DNA from: Spirochaetia bacterium
Lineage (GTDB): Bacteria > Spirochaetota > Spirochaetia > CADAEX01
Assembly (NCBI GenBank): GCA_963662795.1
Contig: OY759746.1
Location: 1,888,001 to 1,952,000 of the forward strand
Length of the DNA stretch: 64,000 nucleotides
Direction of reading: 5' to 3'
Positions 3,010 to 62,836 of the stretch are shown here, in pieces. Positions within the stretch are counted from its first letter, which is position 1. Every line of letters begins with the position of its first letter. The position numbers and the translations under genes are program-made. The notes under the pieces are model-generated. The model worked only from the letters and a program-made list of their open reading frames with translations. It did not search any database and had not been told where the DNA came from.

Positions 3010-3178
3010 GGATAACAGAGGATAAAGCGCTTCACTCGGGGTACCTCGCTTGGGCTTCGCCACACATCGTAGGGTTTGAATTACAACTTCTAAAAAAAAC
3101 AAGTCTAGAGGGAAATAATACAGCTTTTTAACTTTCATAGTTATTTACGATGCGTCGCTTATCCTCAGGACGTTATGC
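3010..3178 (+). repeat. attC-like site 1 (host family, AGAGGATAA core)
   Basis: GGATAAC...CGCTTATCCTCAGGAC-GTTATGC. Confidence 0.85.
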
Positions 3179-3648
3179 GAAAGGCTGGCCGAAGAGGAAT
3201 AGGCTGGGGGCGGGGGAGAGGAAGACGCCGCCGTACATCGTGTGCGCCGAAGAAAAATTAATAAACTGTGATTTTTATAATCTGTAAGAGTGTTTGTATA
3301 AATTACCATTATAAAAGCAGAAAAAATGAAAATATAATTTTATTTTAGCAGTTCCTTCCGTTTCATTTGATTATGGCTTGGTTAATAAACAAAAAAAAAT
3401 AAATCGCATAAAATGTAATATATTTTTGTAAGTGAAAATTATTTGGGATAAAGGTGAAAATAAAACTCTTAAGCTTGAAAGATATATTTCTTTCAAGATA
3501 TTTGTGGATTTGATTCTGGGGCTAGTTATAAAGTTAATTTGCAAAATATTAACCTTGGAATATAGCTGATTATGATAATTTTCACCGTCTCACACTTCCA
3601 TGTGTTCGACGAAGACCGCCCCAGCCAAGAAGAGCCGGCCAGCCCATC

Positions 3649-3802
3649 GCATAACAGCGAATGGCCGGTTCCGGCTGTTTCTAAGGAAACAGCCTCCACC
3701 CAAATTGCCGAAGTAATACATGTTAAGAATAATGGAATAGAGTATAAACTTTTGGAGTGAAAAACACCATCGGCAACTTCGGTCATTCGCGAGACGTTAT
3801 AT
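3649..3802 (+). repeat. attC-like site 2 (AGCGAATG core)
   Basis: GCATAAC...CATTCGCGAGAC-GTTATAT. Confidence 0.85.
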
Positions 3803-3895
3803 GCAATACGACCCCAAGAGGACGCCGCCCGGACCTCCGGCCCACGGGCGAAGAAAATGGTATCTGCTGTATAATATACTTTATACATAAGATAT

Positions 3896-3925
3896 ATAGT
3901 TTTCTAGTTATTTAATATGTTATGA
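3896..3925 (+). other. Internal attI-like integration site in a carrier cassette
   Basis: ATAGTTTTCTAGTTATTTAATATG|TT, near-identical at ~29605-29630 and similar at ~62812-62832; the following GTTATGAGTC is the reverse complement of GACTCATAAC at 5626-5635. Confidence 0.65.
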
Positions 3926-3990
3926 GTCTAAGACGCGTCGATAGTTTTTTATATGAAGCAATTAAATTGATCTAAGGAGGGTCTGAAAAT

Positions 3991-5259
3991 ATGTATTTCA
4001 AAGCGGGAACTAGGAATATTGTTTTTGTGGTTGCATTTGTTCTATTGGCAGGCTGTACCACTATTGATACGAAGCCATTCGAACAGTTTAACTCCTCGTT
4101 AACAGAGTTAAATAAAGGGGCAACATCATCGCTTGATGTGACCATTCCTTTAGCGGAAGGGCGTTACCGGAAAGAAGTCGAGAGTGAATTAAAGCAAGGG
4201 AATGACGAGTTGTTACAGGAGCTTTATATACTGGCTAAAGCAGAGAATCCATTTTTCATATCTAAGCCACCAGTATTTTTAAAGGCGAAAAAATTTAAAT
4301 TAGGAATTTCGAAAGCCAACCTAGTTTGGTTGGAATACTCTAATCTTTTGTTACAACTTTCATCGAAAGATCTTGTCGATGATGAAAAGTTTTTGAAGCT
4401 ATCAGAAGAACTTAATAAAAATGCGTTCGACGCGGTTCAGTCGCTCAAAGATGAACCCAGCGATACATCTGCAAAAAATACGGCACTTTTTTCAGAGATA
4501 GCTATTGCAATGGCGAAAGAGTACATAAGAACAAAGCAGAAGAAAAAGCTTATGGAGTCTCTCGCTAACAATCAAGACAGCATTAGTGCCTATGTAGAGC
4601 ATATGCAAAGTGCGATAGTAACAATGGCGCAAAGCAGTACTCAGGAACACTCAGAAAAGCAGGAAAATTTAGCTAGAGATCTTTTAGGTTTGGTGGTTAG
4701 TAACGAAAACGGTAAGAACGATGCAAAAATACAAAAAATTATCGGGGATATGATTGATATCAAAACTACACATTCAGACCAAATGGTGTCTCTCCAGGCG
4801 TTGCATACAGCATATGGAAAAATACCTGGTGCCCATGAAGCGTTGGCAACGCGGTTGGCTAAATCAGATTCATCTATAGCTGCCATTAATGACCTGTTAG
4901 AAAAAGGAGTTCAGCTTCATACTTCTTACGAAGCGAAGGTAAAAGTTAATAAAGTAGAATTGGTGCAAGCTAAAGCAGATGCAGCGAGTAGTGAAGCTAC
5001 AACAGCTGAAATCACATATCAGCAAGCCAAGCTAAAATACACGCAAGCCCAATTTGAATATACCTTGGCACAAAATACTTCAGATGCAGATCCCGATAAC
5101 GAAATCAAAAAGAAAGATGCTGAAGATAAAAAGAAAATAGCTGAAGAGCTTAAATTAGAGGCTGATGGTCTAAAAAAATCTTCCGAAGCCCTAAGAGCGG
5201 CTGCGACGGCTATACAAGAAAGTGCTAACGAAATCAAAAACAGTATTATCAACAATTAA
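3991..5259 (+). CDS. Lipoprotein with long coiled coil (nested cassette)
   Basis: Signal peptide with LLAGC lipobox; helical Ala/Lys/Glu-rich C-terminus; AAGGAGG RBS. Confidence 0.8.
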   Translation: MYFKAGTRNIVFVVAFVLLAGCTTIDTKPFEQFNSSLTELNKGATSSLDVTIPLAEGRYRKEVESELKQGNDELLQELYILAKAENPFFISKPPVFLKAKKFKLGISKANLVWLEYSNLLLQLSSKDLVDDEKFLKLSEELNKNAFDAVQSLKDEPSDTSAKNTALFSEIAIAMAKEYIRTKQKKKLMESLANNQDSISAYVEHMQSAIVTMAQSSTQEHSEKQENLARDLLGLVVSNENGKNDAKIQKIIGDMIDIKTTHSDQMVSLQALHTAYGKIPGAHEALATRLAKSDSSIAAINDLLEKGVQLHTSYEAKVKVNKVELVQAKADAASSEATTAEITYQQAKLKYTQAQFEYTLAQNTSDADPDNEIKKKDAEDKKKIAEELKLEADGLKKSSEALRAAATAIQESANEIKNSIINN

Positions 5260-5270
5260 GGAGCTAAGAG

Positions 5271-5621
5271 ATGCCTATTTCCATGACAAAAAAACAAGAA
5301 ATAATACAGCAATTATTGGTTTTAAAAACAAAAGCGTATCAAGCGGAAGTTAAATTGTTGTTAAAACAAAAGCCTAACGAGGCCAACGATGTAAAGAATC
5401 ATGGTAAAGAGCTGTCCAGAAAGATTGATAACTTAATAGCAGAAACAATGAGTGACTGGATAGGAAATGCCGACAAACTTATTAGTGATGTAAAGTTGAT
5501 TAACAAAAAAGTACAACGTTCTATTAATGATATAAATAACAATGCAAATGTAGCTGGAAACGTTGTTAAGTTAGTCGGTTTCATTGATGAGGTAGTTGAA
5601 ATTGTTGACGGGATTACTTAA
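5271..5621 (+). CDS. Hypothetical helical protein, partner of the lipoprotein
   Basis: AAGGAG RBS, 11 bp downstream of the previous gene, same inner cassette. Confidence 0.75.
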   Translation: MPISMTKKQEIIQQLLVLKTKAYQAEVKLLLKQKPNEANDVKNHGKELSRKIDNLIAETMSDWIGNADKLISDVKLINKKVQRSINDINNNANVAGNVVKLVGFIDEVVEIVDGIT

Positions 5622-5628
5622 TTACGAC

Positions 5629-5761
5629 TCATAACATGTCGCTCGAGTAGTCCGCGCGGCATGCTATCACCAGCCGAGATTTTTGCTAGCTGCATCTTGC
5701 TTTTCATTAGAATATTAATCTTTTCAGCAGCACCACGCGGCAACTCAGCTCTGCGTTATGT
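5629..5761 (+). repeat. Canonical attC site (inner, non-host family)
   Basis: TCATAAC-ATGTCGC-TCGAGT...ACTCA-GCTCTGC-GTTATGT, classic R''/L''/L'/R' spacing. Confidence 0.85.
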
Positions 5762-5826
5762 TTATCAAAATTAGATAAATTGAGAGTGTTAGTTGAAATG
5801 GGTAAAAAGTAGTAGAAGGAAAAGTT

Positions 5827-7032
5827 ATGGGATGTAATCATGAAGAAATTGAATTATTAAATCCTTATGAGATAGTATGGAAGTATAGGTGTAAAAAATG
5901 TAAAGAAGTATTTATGTGTAGCTGTGAAGAAGATGTTGCAAGGTTTTATGTACCACATCAATTAGATAAAGGATGTAACTTAGAAACCCAAGAGCGAATT
6001 CCTGTTACATTGGGGTTTGTAGATAATATTTGCGATTCTTGTAGGGGGAATAAAAAGAAGCCTTTTCCCAAAGCGCCAATGATGGGTGCAACCAGCAAAA
6101 TACGAAGATATTATTGGAAAGAGATTTTATATATAAAAATAAGAAAAACTATTGAATTCGCTAAGAATAATAATTGTGATTCGTATGATGCTGTATTAAA
6201 AAAATATCCTGAGAAAATAGAACAATTTGAAAATGAGGCACTAAATGAAATAAAGGAATTACATGCTAAACATCCATTATATGAATATGAAGATATTTCA
6301 CAACAGGAAATAATTGAAAAATACAATATTGATATGATAGAATTTGAAGCTAATTATATAAAATCAGAAGAAAAAAAAGTAATCATTGAATATAAAAATG
6401 AAAAATATAATGTTGAGGAATTTATTAGAAGGAAGTATGAAGAAAAAGGCTTTAAAACACTTATATTAGAAAGTATTCCTTTTCATGTTTTGTTTGCTAC
6501 AATATTTAATAATATTATTCAAAATATTGATGATGAAAAAGTTAGACGTACAAGTTTTGGCGATCGAGAATATAGAGGAATAATGATAAGTGCATTACTT
6601 CCTTCTGACTTTGGGACGTCAGGGTATTACAAAAGAAAAAGAGAAATAATTGATAACTTTTTGAAGAAATTCACATCAAAAGAATTATTAATTGAAGAAT
6701 TTACTCAAAATTTAAATAATCCCATTAGTGAGAATTTAAGACAATATTTATGGGCAATAGATATTGAAAAAATAGAAATAGCCAGAAAACTTCTTGATAT
6801 CATAGATCATAATATCATGAAAAATATTTTACTTTATTTAATAAAGGATTACTGGAAGAATTATTGTGGATGGCCGGATTTGATTTGTTATACAGATGAA
6901 AAAGTATTATTTGTTGAAGTTAAATCAAGTACTGATAAACTAAGTGAAGATCAAAAAAACTGGATTGAGGGAAATTATAAAGAATTATCTATAGATTTTG
7001 AGATAGCGAAAGTTATAAGATTGAAAACATAA
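5827..7032 (+). CDS. VRR-NUC domain nuclease with N-terminal Cys-rich region (nested cassette)
   Basis: GWPDL...FVEVKSSTDKLSEDQKNW PD-(D/E)xK VRR-NUC motif; CxxC pairs. Confidence 0.8.
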   Translation: MGCNHEEIELLNPYEIVWKYRCKKCKEVFMCSCEEDVARFYVPHQLDKGCNLETQERIPVTLGFVDNICDSCRGNKKKPFPKAPMMGATSKIRRYYWKEILYIKIRKTIEFAKNNNCDSYDAVLKKYPEKIEQFENEALNEIKELHAKHPLYEYEDISQQEIIEKYNIDMIEFEANYIKSEEKKVIIEYKNEKYNVEEFIRRKYEEKGFKTLILESIPFHVLFATIFNNIIQNIDDEKVRRTSFGDREYRGIMISALLPSDFGTSGYYKRKREIIDNFLKKFTSKELLIEEFTQNLNNPISENLRQYLWAIDIEKIEIARKLLDIIDHNIMKNILLYLIKDYWKNYCGWPDLICYTDEKVLFVEVKSSTDKLSEDQKNWIEGNYKELSIDFEIAKVIRLKT

Positions 7033-7180
7033 CAAGCAAATCGAGCAGTCCTGACTATTGTCACGGTTTCTGCTAAAGCCGTTCCGGCTCCCTGCGTGAT
7101 CACCCTCCGCCTGCACTCAGGAACAGCGTCAATGCCATCGGATGGCTTTGACTGTCAGGCAGCTCATCTGGTAGTTATAC
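7027..7180 (+). repeat. Canonical attC site (inner, non-host family)
   Basis: ACATAAC-AAGCAAA-TCGAGC...GCTCA-TCTGGTA-GTTATAC; R'' matches the cassette start GTTATGT at 5755. Confidence 0.85.
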
Positions 7181-7254
7181 TGGAATATTTAGAAAAGAGG
7201 AAAAGTCCGGCCTTGGCGGTGCCGTGCGGCCTGGACAAGAAGGGGTCGTACTGC

Positions 7255-7446
7255 ATATAACAGCGATTATTTCGCTGCGCTCCCTGTGGTCGCTTGGGCT
7301 CCTGCCAGTTGAGCTGGCAGATCGCCATATTTTGTTTTCATAAAACCGGAACAACATGTGTTTTATGCTCTTCAAGTTTGTAAAAACCAAATAAAAATAT
7401 TTTAGAGTTTAGTCACAAAACATCGAATAATCGCGAGACGTTATCT
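7255..7446 (+). repeat. attC-like site 3 (AGCGATTATT core)
   Basis: ATATAAC...AATAATCGCGAGAC-GTTATCT. Confidence 0.85.
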
Positions 7447-7531
7447 GTAATACCGCCCAAGAAAATAGTGCGCCATCCTTGGCGCACAAGATATATAATA
7501 TTATTAAAGTGATAGTCAAAAGGAAAAAATT

Positions 7532-8904: not shown

Positions 8905-8957
8905 CATAAATCACAATCGCCATCCATGGCGATTGTGATAGGAAAGGGCGGTACTAC

Positions 8958-9149
8958 AGATAACAGCGATTATTTCGCTGCGCTCCCTTTGGTCGCTTGG
9001 GCTCCTGCCAGTTGAGCTGGCAGATCGCCATATTTTGTTTTCATAAAACCTGAACGATATGTGTTTTATGCTTTTCAAGTCTGAAAAAACCAAATAAAAG
9101 TATTTTAGAGTTTAGTCACAAAACATCGAATAATCGCGAGACGTTATTT
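8958..9149 (+). repeat. attC-like site 4 (AGCGATTATT core)
   Basis: AGATAAC...GTTATTT. Confidence 0.85.
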
Positions 9150-12463: not shown

Positions 12464-12581
12464 ACAATGCCCCCACAAGATGCGATCGCCCGGACCTCCG
12501 GCCGACGGGCGAGGATATGCAGTAGGAGTAATATACAGTATAATAGTATATGTTAGAAGAACCATTCGGGCAGAAGAAAAA

Positions 12582-29318: not shown

Positions 29319-29510
29319 GCATAACAGCGATTATTTCGCTGCGCTCCCTGTGGTCGCTTGGGCTCCTGCCAGTTGAGCTGGCAGATCGCCATATTTTGTA
29401 TTCATAAAACCGGAACAACATGTGTTTTGTGCTCTTCAAGTTTGTAAAAACCAAATAAAAGTATTTTAGAGTTTAGTCACAAAACATCGAATAATCGCGA
29501 GACGTTAGCA
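29319..29510 (+). repeat. attC-like site 15 (AGCGATTATT core)
   Basis: GCATAAC...GTTAGCA. Confidence 0.85.
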
Positions 29511-29604
29511 GCAATACGTCCCCAAGAGAACACCGCCCGGACCTCCGGCCCACGGGCGAAGAAAATAGTAACTGCTGTATAATATACTTTAAAAATAGAT
29601 ATAA

Positions 29605-29634
29605 ATAGTTTTCTAGTTATTTAATATGTTAGGA
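29605..29634 (+). other. Internal attI-like site (second copy)
   Basis: ATAGTTTTCTAGTTATTTAATATG|TTAGGA; similarity to 3896-3922 stops just after GTTA. Confidence 0.65.
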
Positions 29635-30365
29635 TGACTCTTAGGGTCAATGAAAATTATAAAATGAAAGACATAATAGAAATAACGAATAGTTTTAATA
29701 ACACTTTTACTGAATATGGCTGGATAGCAACAGATGATTTCTCTGTTTCAATTATGGAAAAGGCTTTAGAAACATATCGTAATAAAGGAATTGCTTCAGC
29801 CGAAGACTACTTTTGTTCAGTATTTAATGATCAATATTTTAGTACTTGTATACACCGAATGAAAGCAATATTGATTTTTAAGGGTAGAGAACGTCTGGTA
29901 GAATTTGCATATATTGATCATAAAGAAAAAAGATTTCATGCATCAATTCCTGTTGTACTAAGTCAAATTGATGGACTTGTTCATGATATTGCAAAACAAA
30001 GTTTCTATGAAAGATATGAGAGAACAAAAATATTTCAATATACAAGTAAGATTACAGGTTTAGTCTCGACCTTAGATAAAGTAGCTCAAAATATGAATCA
30101 ATGTAGAAAGCAAACAAATTTTACACCATTAAACTTTCCGTATCGAAATGGAATATTACACGGACGTGATATCAATTACGATTCAGAAATAGTATCTACA
30201 AAATGTTTTTTTAATTTATTTGCTCTTAGAACCTGGGGATTGTTTATACAAAATAATGAGTTCGATAAAATATTAAATCCAAAACAATATATTAAAATAC
30301 CTGGTTTCGTAGTTGGGGATAAAATGAAACTTTATATGGAAGAGGCATTTAAAGAAAAAGTTTAA
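29634..30365 (+). CDS. Hypothetical protein with HEPN-like RxxxxH motif (nested cassette)
   Basis: SQIDG...YRNGILHG. Confidence 0.6.
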   Translation: MTLRVNENYKMKDIIEITNSFNNTFTEYGWIATDDFSVSIMEKALETYRNKGIASAEDYFCSVFNDQYFSTCIHRMKAILIFKGRERLVEFAYIDHKEKRFHASIPVVLSQIDGLVHDIAKQSFYERYERTKIFQYTSKITGLVSTLDKVAQNMNQCRKQTNFTPLNFPYRNGILHGRDINYDSEIVSTKCFFNLFALRTWGLFIQNNEFDKILNPKQYIKIPGFVVGDKMKLYMEEAFKEKV

Positions 30366-30478
30366 CAACTGCTTAATTTTGATATTTTCTTTGTCGCATT
30401 TAGTGCAGTCGCTGCGCATACGCATAAAATGTAACAAGTTTTAAAAGTACTAAAATACAGGTTAAGTAAATGTTAGAA
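30360..30478 (+). repeat. Inner attC (second family)
   Basis: GTTTAAC...CAGGTTAAGTAAAT-GTTAGAA. Confidence 0.75.
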
Positions 30479-30504
30479 AGACGTTCCGTACAGGAAGGAA
30501 AGAG

Positions 30505-31104
30505 ATGGATCAAGTATTAATAATTATTTCTATAATAGGTGCAATAGTTACAGTAATTACATTCTCAGAAAAAATTACTAAAATTAAAAGTTTTCTGGTT
30601 AATTCATTTTCAAAAAAGAAAAATATTGAAATAAAAATAGTAAATAAAATGATTGAATACTATAATTTCTTTACCGAAAATATGGACAAAGAAAACTGTG
30701 AATTAAAATATTCAAAAATGGAAGATGAAATAGATTTTATTTTAAAAAATATTAAATACAAAATGGTTTTAAAATTTGATAACAAATTTATTGATAAATA
30801 TATGAAATATATAGGTTATAAAAAAGAATTTAGAACAACAGAAAATTTTTATAAATACAGTCATCTATATTTCAAAAATACAGACCTAATATTGGAATTA
30901 TCAAAAAGTACTTATAAAATTAAAATTGATAGATTAAATTTTCCATTAAAAGATATTTGGGGACAATTTCGAGCTAATCGTTTTATATTTTGTTCTCAAT
31001 ATAAAAAAAGGTGGGAAGGCGTACCTGAAATTGATAAAATATTTTTACAAGATATTGAAATGCCTATAAAATTATTAAAGATATACTATAATATAATTAT
31101 ATAA
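30505..31104 (+). CDS. Membrane-anchored hypothetical protein (nested cassette)
   Basis: N-terminal TM helix; GGAAGGA RBS. Confidence 0.7.
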   Translation: MDQVLIIISIIGAIVTVITFSEKITKIKSFLVNSFSKKKNIEIKIVNKMIEYYNFFTENMDKENCELKYSKMEDEIDFILKNIKYKMVLKFDNKFIDKYMKYIGYKKEFRTTENFYKYSHLYFKNTDLILELSKSTYKIKIDRLNFPLKDIWGQFRANRFIFCSQYKKRWEGVPEIDKIFLQDIEMPIKLLKIYYNIII

Positions 31105-31108
31105 GAAT

Positions 31109-31167
31109 TTTTAACAAATTGTTCAACTTGATTAGTCATTGCTTCATGAGTTAATAAAATGTTATAA
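31109..31167 (+). repeat. Short 59-bp canonical attC (inner)
   Basis: TTTTAAC-AAATTGT-TCAACT...AGTTA-ATAAAAT-GTTATAA. Confidence 0.65.
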
Positions 31168-31238
31168 AATTAAAATAGGGAAAGAAGTCCAGCCTTGGCT
31201 CCGCCGGGCGGCTTGGACAAGAAGCGGCTGGTACTGGA

Positions 31239-31410
31239 GCATAACAGCGGGTAAGAAACTGCGCTCGGAGTACCTCGCTTGGGCTTCGCCATATTTTGCT
31301 TTTAAACAACAAAAATAATTATTGTAATGTTCTTTTCAAGTTTTAAAAAAAGGACAAATGAGTATTATAGTTTTAACCGCAAAACATCTTTTACCCGCGG
31401 GACGTTCTCC
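31239..31410 (+). repeat. attC-like site 16 (AGCGGGTAA core)
   Basis: GCATAAC...TTACCCGCGGGAC-GTTCTCC. Confidence 0.85.
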
Positions 31411-34345: not shown

Positions 34346-34440
34346 GCAATGTTCCCGCAAGAAGGGACCGCCCGGACCTCCGGCCGACGGGCGAGGATAT
34401 GCAATATAATAATATATGTTATGTATATTTAGGGGAAAAA

Positions 34441-35883: not shown

Positions 35884-35995
35884 CAATTACATTCAACTGA
35901 ATATTTTATTTGTACAGGTAGAGTAATTACCTGAAAGTTTGAGAAGTCCAGCCTTGGCTCCGCCGTACGGCTTGAACAAGAAGCGGGAACACTGC

Positions 35996-45044: not shown

Positions 45045-45169
45045 ACAATGCCCCCACAAGAGGAAATCGCCCGGACCTCCGGCCGACGGGCGAGGATGTA
45101 GTGCAATATGAAAAATGTACAGTATAATAATATATGTTAGGCGCAAATCATGTATCATGGAATACAATT

Positions 45170-60005: not shown

Positions 60006-60105
60006 GCAATGTTCCCGCAAGAGAAAACCGCCCGGACCTCCGGCCGACGGGCGAGGATATGCAGTATAATAATATAGACCCTACAGATGTGGAGAGATAT
60101 AGTAA

Positions 60106-62542: not shown

Positions 62543-62715
62543 TTATAACAGCGGTTCAAACGCTACGCTCGGAGTACCTCGCTTGGCCTTCGGCATATTT
62601 TATTATCATTCAATCAAAAAAATCTGTGTTTTCTTCTTTTCAAGTGTATTAAACAAACAAAAAAGATTTATAGAGTTTGAGCCATAAAACATCGCTTAAC
62701 CGCGGAACGTTATAT
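62543..62715 (+). repeat. attC-like site 37 (AGCGGTT core)
   Basis: TTATAAC...GTTATAT. Confidence 0.85.
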
Positions 62716-62811
62716 GCAATACGACCCCAAGAGGAAATCGCCCGGACCTCCGGCCCGCGGGCGAGAAAAATGATTAGCTTTATGAGACACTCTATATATA
62801 AAATCCATAGA

Positions 62812-62836
62812 TTTTTAGTTATTTAATATGTTAAAA
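62812..62836 (+). other. Internal attI-like site (third copy)
   Basis: TTTTTAGTTATTTAATATG|TTAAAA, in a cassette with the same start barcode as the carrier at 3796. Confidence 0.6.

Follow-up and report, generated by a model that had tools for sequence, protein, structure and literature searches.

The carrier cassette and its array

We analysed a 64,000-nucleotide stretch of DNA, called the window below, from a Spirochaetia bacterium whose genome is a single contig of 3.93 Mb (GCA_963662795.1, here G000; window at G000:C1:1888001-1952000), and describe at 3796-7446 a carrier cassette, an outer unit of a cassette array that itself holds smaller cassettes. The whole window is contained in a co-oriented cassette array of ~330 kb, with its first boundary (G/TTATACG, the slash marking the crossover here and below) at 1,847,951 and its end at ~2.18 Mb of the contig; window coordinates above 64000 denote positions downstream of the window in the same array. 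In these ~330 kb a stem-based scan located no fewer than 183 long attC-like sites (140-180 nt), which makes the array very large by integron standards. Some long sites escaped this count, for example near 79420 and 254533, and three apparently non-cognate rows (76790, 92527, 253053) are artefacts of such missed sites.

The carrier is opened by the crossover G/TT at 3796/3797, at the end of the long attC of the preceding cassette (3649-3802, + strand; R'' GCATAAC at 3649-3655, R' GTTATAT at 3796-3802; stem score 24-25 for 3655 to 3796). All further parts of the carrier were also found on the + strand. Its outer R' core with a 13-nt extension, GTTATATGCAATACGACCCC (3796-3815), is followed by a GC-rich 5' hairpin at 3826-3850 (stem 3826-3831 with 3845-3850) of a kind common to most outer cassettes of the array, then by TGTATAAT at 3868-3875, an extended -10-like element and candidate promoter toward the cargo that is conserved in a 32-copy alignment described below, and by TAGTTATTTAATATG at 3905-3919, the conserved tail of a 5' module, with the inner crossover between G3919 and T3920. 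Behind the cargo lie a purine-rich 3' carrier remainder at 7175-7241 (TTATACTGGAATATTTAG...) with a GC hairpin at 7205-7236, and then the outer R'' core (7255-7261) with its extension, GGGGTCGTACTGCATATAAC (7242-7261), which is the reverse complement of GTTATATGCAATACGACCCC at 19 of 20 positions. The carrier's own long attC extends from 7255 to 7446 (179 nt from 7261 to 7440, L'' from 7262, R' GTTATCT at 7440-7446), and the next outer cassette begins at 7441. Examined for attC-like bounds, 3797-7440 showed R'' and R' cores, paired L boxes and cognate ends.

This build follows the general plan of the array: GTT with a 17-nt extension opens an outer cassette, AAGA comes next and leads into a GC hairpin, and the unit closes with another GC hairpin and 20 nt that are reverse-complementary to its opening. 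Cognate ends were observed in 170 of 182 outer units by gapped comparison, across 36 different R' 19-mers; matched ends therefore reliably mark one unit, and the covariation of the two ends over so many sequence types argues that the outer sites function as folded hairpins with a 20-bp R stem. This stem has a fixed irregularity at positions 9-11 (an A-C type mismatch or a 1-nt bulge), which may correspond to the extrahelical bases that ordinary attC sites have. A second example of the pairing in the window joins 7440-7459 with 8945-8964. The GC-rich hairpins just inside both ends of nearly all outer cassettes (e.g. 3826-3850 and 7205-7236) each adjoin a purine-rich AAGA(G) stretch on the + strand, with no T-run after them.

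Two smaller cassettes fill the carrier. The first, at 3920-5755, starts with GTTATGAGTC (3919-3928), which pairs at 10 of 10 positions with GACTCATAAC (5626-5635), and ends in an attC with R'' at 5629-5635 (TCATAAC) and R' at 5755-5761 (GTTATGT). The second, at 5756-7174, starts with GTTATGTTT (5755-5763), pairing at 9 of 9 positions with AAACATAAC (7025-7033), and has R'' at 7027-7033 (ACATAAC) and R' at 7174-7180 (GTTATAC). Both attC-like sites, 5635 to 5755 and 7033 to 7174, were recorded in the stem-based scan, and their bottom strands fold into a closed R''/R' box of 5-7 bp followed by a second stem, with minimum free energies of -21.8 and -25.1 kcal/mol that stand only 1.86 and 1.93 standard deviations below shuffled sequence (z -1.86 and -1.93). 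The view of 3797-7440 as a single outer cassette with two canonical cassettes inside is supported. A previous reading of this DNA, made from the sequence alone and called here the sequence-only reading, had proposed that the outer ends match and make 3797-7440 one unit, and that two pairs of inner ends, each closed by an attC, lie inside it; both proposals were borne out at every coordinate given, at 19/20 for the outer pairing and 10/10 and 9/9 for the inner pairings, with folded attCs at 5635 to 5755 and 7033 to 7174.

The cargo open reading frames (ORFs) of this carrier are all on the + strand. Inner cassette 1 contains one of 422 aa (3991-5259) with no Pfam hit and an N-terminus that by eye resembles a lipoprotein signal, and a second of 116 aa (5271-5621), also with no Pfam hit. 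Inner cassette 2 contains an ORF of 401 aa (5827-7032) with a C-terminal VRR-NUC nuclease domain (PF08774, 47.3 bits). Contigs of a cave metagenome (run X1) include both cassette 1 genes (window 4084-5634) at ~93-94% identity, with 53 differences each over 861 and 693 nt; the match breaks off at 5634, the last base before the R'' end, with different sequence beyond. The carrier is flanked on one side by a 483-nt ORF-less cassette and on the other by an ordinary cassette that has no module. The 483-nt cassette was observed in four near-identical copies (3173-3796, 65477-65960, ~79590-80072 and 256386-256869), three of them immediately upstream of a carrier.

Carriers with one break point and unrelated cargo

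The sequence that leads up to the inner crossover recurs through the array. Besides the 3796 carrier, the 18-mer TAGTTATTTAATATGTTA was found exactly at 29614-29631 and 62816-62833, and a fourth match had 3 mismatches; shuffled sequence at up to 3 mismatches averaged 0.70 matches, four being reached in 1 of 100 shuffles. TATAAT is present at 3870-3875 and 29578-29583, and the third module copy has TATGAG. These copies belong to a 123-nt 5' module observed in 27 outer cassettes, consisting of R' with its 17-nt extension, the GC hairpin, TGTATAAT and then ...TAGTTATTTAATATG/TTA. Genome-wide, the module motif at up to 2 mismatches gave 35 matches, comprising the 27 genuine copies, one chance match inside an attC (window 3138) and seven outside the array. 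Full-length modules were also observed in three sister-genus genomes (G005, G008 and G011) and in four of the eight metagenome contigs that match a 19-nt tail motif, the other four contigs being chance matches without a module.

An alignment of 32 copies (27 from G000 and five from G005, G008, G011 and two metagenome contigs) gave a column identity mostly of 0.8-0.9 through ATATGTT(A), dropping to ~0.4 immediately after it, where each copy continues differently. The same G/TT crossover was seen in all 27 copies of G000 and in all five others, and every cargo attC found was on the + strand. It is supported that this break is a recombination point, with different cargo in all 27 copies. The recurrence of the motif, the end of similarity right after GTTA and the TATAAT of the first two copies, which the sequence-only reading had described for three places, all hold and are part of this 27-copy pattern.

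Two further module copies start in the window. The copy at 62709-62830 (+ strand) has its cargo and a TATACTGG-type 3' remainder continuing past the window end (window 62831-64330). The copy at 29504-29628 (+ strand) belongs to a unit whose R' is of type GTTAGCAGC and whose next R'', at 31245, is of type GTTATGCTC, so that its outer ends are non-cognate; in this unit (29504-31404) the first cargo start, TTAGGATGAC, has no cognate R''.

Inner cassettes with a cognate R'', allowing at most 2 mismatches in 9 nt and requiring a stem, were detected by automatic chain search in 13 of the 27 carriers, 10 of which showed no mismatch, and four further carriers were recognised by eye with 1-2 mismatches. 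By eye, nearly all 27 cargo stretches end in a short attC, the R' of the cargo end (GTTATA.. or GTTAAA..) adjoining an A-rich spacer, then the 3' hairpin and the cognate outer R''. Of 182 outer units, 12 had a strong attC-like hairpin abutting the 3' shell, 11 of these 12 being carriers; with the interval searched shifted 400 nt inward the figure was 2 of 157. A carrier of G011 (G011:C1:3237212-3240244, minus strand) is nested likewise, its inner end being cognate at 11/11 positions and its outer ends cognate too; its cargo includes a protein with the stretch ..DEDEWWHFDYG.., which may resemble D-Ala-D-Ala dipeptidases.

The 3' remainder TATACTGGAATATTTAG of the 3796 carrier recurs behind cargo at eight places of the array, five of them reading TTATACTGG and three having 1-3 mismatches in the first bases. 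From these eight places we compared the seven carriers of TATACTGG type, with GTTATATGCAATACGACCCC ... TATACTGGAATATTTAG ends. Identity among the 5' shells is 81-98% and rises to as much as 100% over the first 88-92 nt of the 3' shells, and no similarity between cargoes (no high-scoring segment pair) was seen in 19 of the 21 pairs, the remaining two pairs sharing just 23 and 32 nt. The carriers at 3796 and 134888, 131 kb apart, are an example, with shells that are 97.6% (124 nt) and 98.9% (267 nt) identical around unrelated cargo of 3255 and 3425 nt. The sequence-only reading had suggested looking for the same carrier with other cargo, and this comparison gave a positive answer, both in the 3796 and 134888 pair and in the 19 of 21 pairs without cargo similarity. 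Every copy has a different first cargo unit, so the left junction must have been used in many separate recombination events; exchange of attC x attC type is by itself unable to replace the unit adjacent to the junction. An 851-nt record of run X6 joins 3922 to 7174 with intervening letters given as 'not known', and it probably represents the same carrier type with another cargo of ~0.7 kb.

This pattern bears on two readings in which no cassette was ever captured. According to the first, the shell halves were spread round existing cassettes by homologous recombination or gene conversion, or the run of 3' shell, long attC and 5' module forms a spacer cassette in alternation with ordinary ones. 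Shells that are 80-100% identical repeats are able to recombine homologously, and two units do have mixed outer ends. Against this, homologous exchange would not yield a break at one base, G/TT on both sides and cognate inner ends. A spacer cassette requires neighbouring carriers, whereas the 3796 carrier lies between non-carrier cassettes, and the 20-nt matched ends join the two halves of one carrier rather than the halves across a long attC. We consider a reading without insertion very unlikely, and its spacer-cassette form, like that of a flat array, is rejected on account of the cognate-end pairing.

The second is that the arrangement at 3796 is an assembly chimera, as the sequence-only reading had itself allowed for the matched ends, or a chance match. 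The array is highly repetitive and Logan unitigs break at repeats, record 14 of run X3 spanning just 3895-7203. That same unitig, an independent short-read product, shows 0 differences over 3895-7203 and spans the inner junction at 5755, although it extends only 24 and 29 nt past the two junctions between outer and inner units, under the 31 nt required for bridging. The genome was assembled as one contig of 3.93 Mb, and the architecture recurs 27 times here and again in other genomes and metagenomes. With this recurrence and the copies elsewhere, an assembly artefact is excluded for practical purposes, and we give this explanation a negligible probability.

A shorter leader, ..GCAGTATAATAATATATG/TTA, was also observed after the 5' hairpin of other units, with 10 matches in the array including 12535-12552, 34401-34418, 45119-45136 and 60061-60078. 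In at least one of them, with its junction at 34418, the cargo start is cognate to an inner R'', AATACATAAC, at 35884. These short-leader units may be a second carrier type.

Probable recombinases of the two tiers

No integrase gene was found in or beside the 3796 carrier; a recombinase gene at the head of the array lies ~44 kb upstream, and an intI pseudogene ~1.48 Mb away. The array-head gene (G000:C1, 1846782-1847801) is intact, is co-oriented with the array and encodes a tyrosine recombinase of 339 aa. It scores 200 bits on the TIGR02249 integron-integrase model (cut-off 265), with model positions 172-230 unmatched, and its best family is NF040815 with 214.5 bits (cut-off 220). Aligned with the canonical IntI of G011 it is 33% identical with 53 gap positions, the IntI-specific segment being gapped out. 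Long-attC arrays of G011 and of a distant Spirochaetia metagenome-assembled genome (MAG; 54% identity) also have similar recombinases at their heads. Assessed for service by an integrase with the IntI-specific additional domain, the outer array gave a negative result, and the outer tier looks like part of a different, IntI-related system.

The inner tier resembles the classical integrons of the sister genus. Intact IntI proteins (384-400 bits, above the cut-off) are present in G005, G008 and G011, each with a classical divergent array of short attCs of 57-183 nt. A BLAST search of 18 attCs from these arrays against G000 matched seven places at 84-96% identity, all seven inside carriers, and for this reason the inner tier looks like classical IntI cassettes. 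Two recombinase systems thus seem to be involved, which the sequence-only reading had not seen: classical IntI for the inner units, and an enzyme lacking the IntI insertion at the head of the outer array.

A single enzyme could be supposed instead, with the array-head recombinase handling both tiers, classical IntI uninvolved and the inner site a second kind of site for the same protein. That recombinase is intact and co-oriented at the head of long-attC arrays in G000, G011 and the distant MAG, and the classical intI of G000 is a pseudogene (detailed below), yet 27 loaded carriers persist. The inner attCs argue otherwise, since they are of the classical short type and reach 84-96% identity with IntI-adjacent attCs of sister genomes, as does the lack in the array-head enzyme of a segment aligning to the IntI-specific region. 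Full-length modules were, moreover, found only in genomes with a classical intI, intact or decayed (G000, G005, G008 and G011; n=4), the genome with neither full module nor classical intI being G002, a 270-contig draft. On balance we regard the single-enzyme explanation as quite improbable.

The internal site and known integron systems

Nesting and repeated capture at one site are real in this array: the anatomy, the matched ends of both tiers, the identical break point, the unrelated cargo in near-identical shells and the conservation across genera were all observed directly. We consider it probable that the carriers are a family of mobile, ORF-less carrier cassettes with a predicted promoter and one internal docking site for classical cassettes. 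In the mechanism we propose, the carrier would offer one fixed double-stranded target, ...TTTAATATG/TTAT..., ~45 nt downstream of TGTATAAT, and classical short-attC cassettes would be inserted at its G/TT through recombination of attC x target, as happens at attI or attG. At the 3796 carrier this would have happened twice, giving cassette 1 (3920-5755) and cassette 2 (5756-7174). The cargo would in this way be put behind a private promoter anywhere that a carrier sits in the 330-kb array, and carrier and cargo could still move together as a single outer cassette because the carrier keeps its own matched ends. Classical IntI presumably performed the inner insertions, and the carriers presumably still move. 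A broader reading, to which we give slightly less than even odds, is one of two stacked site-specific recombination systems, in which cassettes of the giant array, itself run by an integrase relative devoid of the IntI domain, serve as integrase-less mobile attI-plus-promoter platforms that capture classical cassettes, the platform having itself turned cassette. If this were true, distal genes in the 330-kb array would be expressible, and movable as promoter-plus-gene packages.

Several observations weigh against the docking-site reading. None of the 27 carriers of G000 is empty, the shortest cargo span being 1156 nt, and among outer units below 800 nt, the shortest of which are the 483-nt ORF-less repeat and small ORF cassettes, none carries the module. 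A pattern running from the junction to the 3'-shell hairpin gave six matches in G000, one in G011 and no empty carrier among 20 family genomes including G000, all seven matches being cargo ends or unrelated cassette ends. Metagenome contigs gave 0 matches to the exact junction-plus-shell pattern, the four genuine metagenome carriers identified by the 19-nt tail motif were all loaded (0/4 empty), and no empty joint was seen in Logan contigs, which cannot reveal rare forms and whose uncovered parts in runs X1, X2 and X6 carry no weight either way. The empty carriers for which the sequence-only reading had suggested a search were accordingly found neither in G000 (0/27), nor by pattern in 19 further family genomes, nor in metagenome contigs. 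In addition, 10 of the 27 carriers have no cognate inner R'' at up to 2 mismatches by chain search and by eye together, and two hybrid units, at 29504 and 235233, combine the 5' shell of one type with the non-cognate 3' shell of another, which may reflect a deletion between the carrier junction and a downstream site.

The enzymes and the site itself add to these points. The canonical intI of G000 (C1:412371-413302) is a pseudogene in two frames, with two TGA and one TAG in frame and a frame change near 412900; it sits between an insertion sequence (IS)-like stretch and an rRNA operon, and no cassettes were seen in the 3.1 kb examined around it. G000 has no visibly active enzyme for the inner tier, and because this enzyme is broken the nesting may be a fossil in this genome. 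The 18 sister-array attCs did not match the window's two inner attCs by BLAST, nor did they match the five carrier loci of the sister genomes. The module compared with three canonical attI regions gave local scores of 19-22, no better than shuffles (means 17.5-19.2, standard deviation ~3; 103-143 of 500 reached the observed score). Finally, TGTATAAT matches an extended -10 only, with no -35 hexamer match, for which reason a sigma-70 consensus scan omits it. Its column identity is mostly 0.8-0.9 across the 32 copies and it points into the cargo as a putative promoter.

What kind of site lies inside the carrier was examined from its fold and its relatives. The module tail forms no hairpin over the crossover (minimum free energy -5.1 kcal/mol, z -1.35), so the site is not an attC, and an attC-like hairpin was rejected for want of a stem across the crossover. 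The absence of a hairpin is consistent with double-stranded recognition, which is predicted for this site. In the three sister integrons the sequence at the true attI is ...TATATG/TTATATACC, ...GTAATG/TTATCTACC and ...GTAATG/TTATATTCA, and ATG/TTAT is the sole stretch they have in common with the module site; the attI at the array head (...CTACTAGGAG/TTATACG) showed no resemblance by eye, agreeing at 5 of 20 positions. The comparison with a true attI that the sequence-only reading had proposed therefore came out negative for the three sister-genome attI regions. With neither attI similarity nor an attC hairpin, the term attI-like is justified by behaviour only, namely a fixed, presumably double-stranded G/TT target used in one orientation behind a promoter-like element. 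Of the mobile attI-plus-promoter platform proposed by the sequence-only reading, the single break point, the varied cargo and the conserved TGTATAAT stood, and the similarity to attI did not.

These properties raise the question of whether the break point is an opportunistic hot spot of the secondary or attG type, an AT-rich GTT beside a promoter at which selection for expression retains insertions. According to bioRxiv 10.1101/2022.09.11.507474, IntI inserts cassettes at double-stranded non-att genomic sites with a GWT core, and cassettes inserted at such attG sites are expressed when near a promoter and can be excised again. A site without true-attI similarity and without a hairpin suits this explanation, as does the small requirement of attG beyond GWT and the expression of insertions near promoters given in the same source; the lack of any empty carrier suits it too. 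The carrier site has the minimal attG core (GTT, no hairpin) and departs from the scattered placement of attG sites by its one conserved position. One nucleotide was used in 27 of 27 copies here and 5 of 5 elsewhere despite many nearby GTT triplets, the 60 nt upstream of the break are conserved like recombination cores, which suggests constraint on the site, and the module persists across genera. We therefore think a mere hot spot unlikely, while still giving it some weight beside the docking-site reading.

The closest likeness to a docking site inside a carrier is the platform of class 1 integrons (attI with its promoter Pc). In both, a fixed G/TT crossover takes cassettes successively, the left half of the site is constant as the cargo varies, and an upstream promoter, a candidate one here, reads into the cassettes. 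The carrier differs in having no adjoining integrase gene, in being bounded by its own matched sites and in occurring in 27 copies inside an array. Its site also has no similarity to the attI of related IntI genes; attI1 has accessory direct repeats. In large chromosomal integrons expression is believed to be confined to cassettes close to the one promoter of the platform, and the usefulness of hundreds of distal cassettes is puzzling. If the carrier supplies a docking point and a promoter, this puzzle would be answered for the present lineage, and it would follow that the platform functions of an integron, its insertion site and promoter, are separable from the integrase gene and can turn mobile.

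Other systems share parts of the arrangement. The attG sites, as presented in 10.1101/2022.09.11.507474, are like the predicted carrier target in being double-stranded with little beyond the GTT core, and unlike it in being scattered chromosomal positions used once each, whereas the carriers have one conserved site in every copy and in several genera. ORF-less promoter cassettes (Treponema, oral metagenome; PMC6557892) are likewise small ORF-less cassettes that supply a promoter in an array; they act on the neighbouring cassette, and the abstract reports no cassettes held inside them. Sedentary chromosomal integrons with species-specific attC repeats, those of Vibrio type and the 'reverse' integrons of Treponema (PMC3607928), resemble the present array in being very large and co-oriented with families of similar attCs, and the 'reverse' integrons also in having the recombinase transcribed toward the array. 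Unlike these, the G000 array has ~330 kb, a 20-bp R stem, flanking GC hairpins, a head enzyme without the IntI insertion, and a second tier of classical cassettes within some of its units. In the literature that we searched on nested cassettes and secondary sites there was no description of cassettes inside carrier cassettes. The arrangement links two kinds of cassette array in one cell, which bears on the passage of cassettes between integron types.

Mobile elements at recombination sites offer a last comparison, as IS elements and group IIC introns target attC sites. Like the inner cassettes they are found inside an array at a recombination site, and an IS was seen in two carriers here; they differ in bringing their own transposase or reverse transcriptase and in interrupting the attC, whereas the inner units are ordinary cassettes at a non-attC site. 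An Rfam search of the IS-bearing stretch gave no match. The IS lies exactly at the inner-attC R' (GTT/GAGGCTGTAGATAAAGTG...) of the two carriers, at G000:C1:2074500-2078100 and at window coordinate 257010, and its transposase is split into DUF772 and DDE_Tnp_1_6 ORFs.

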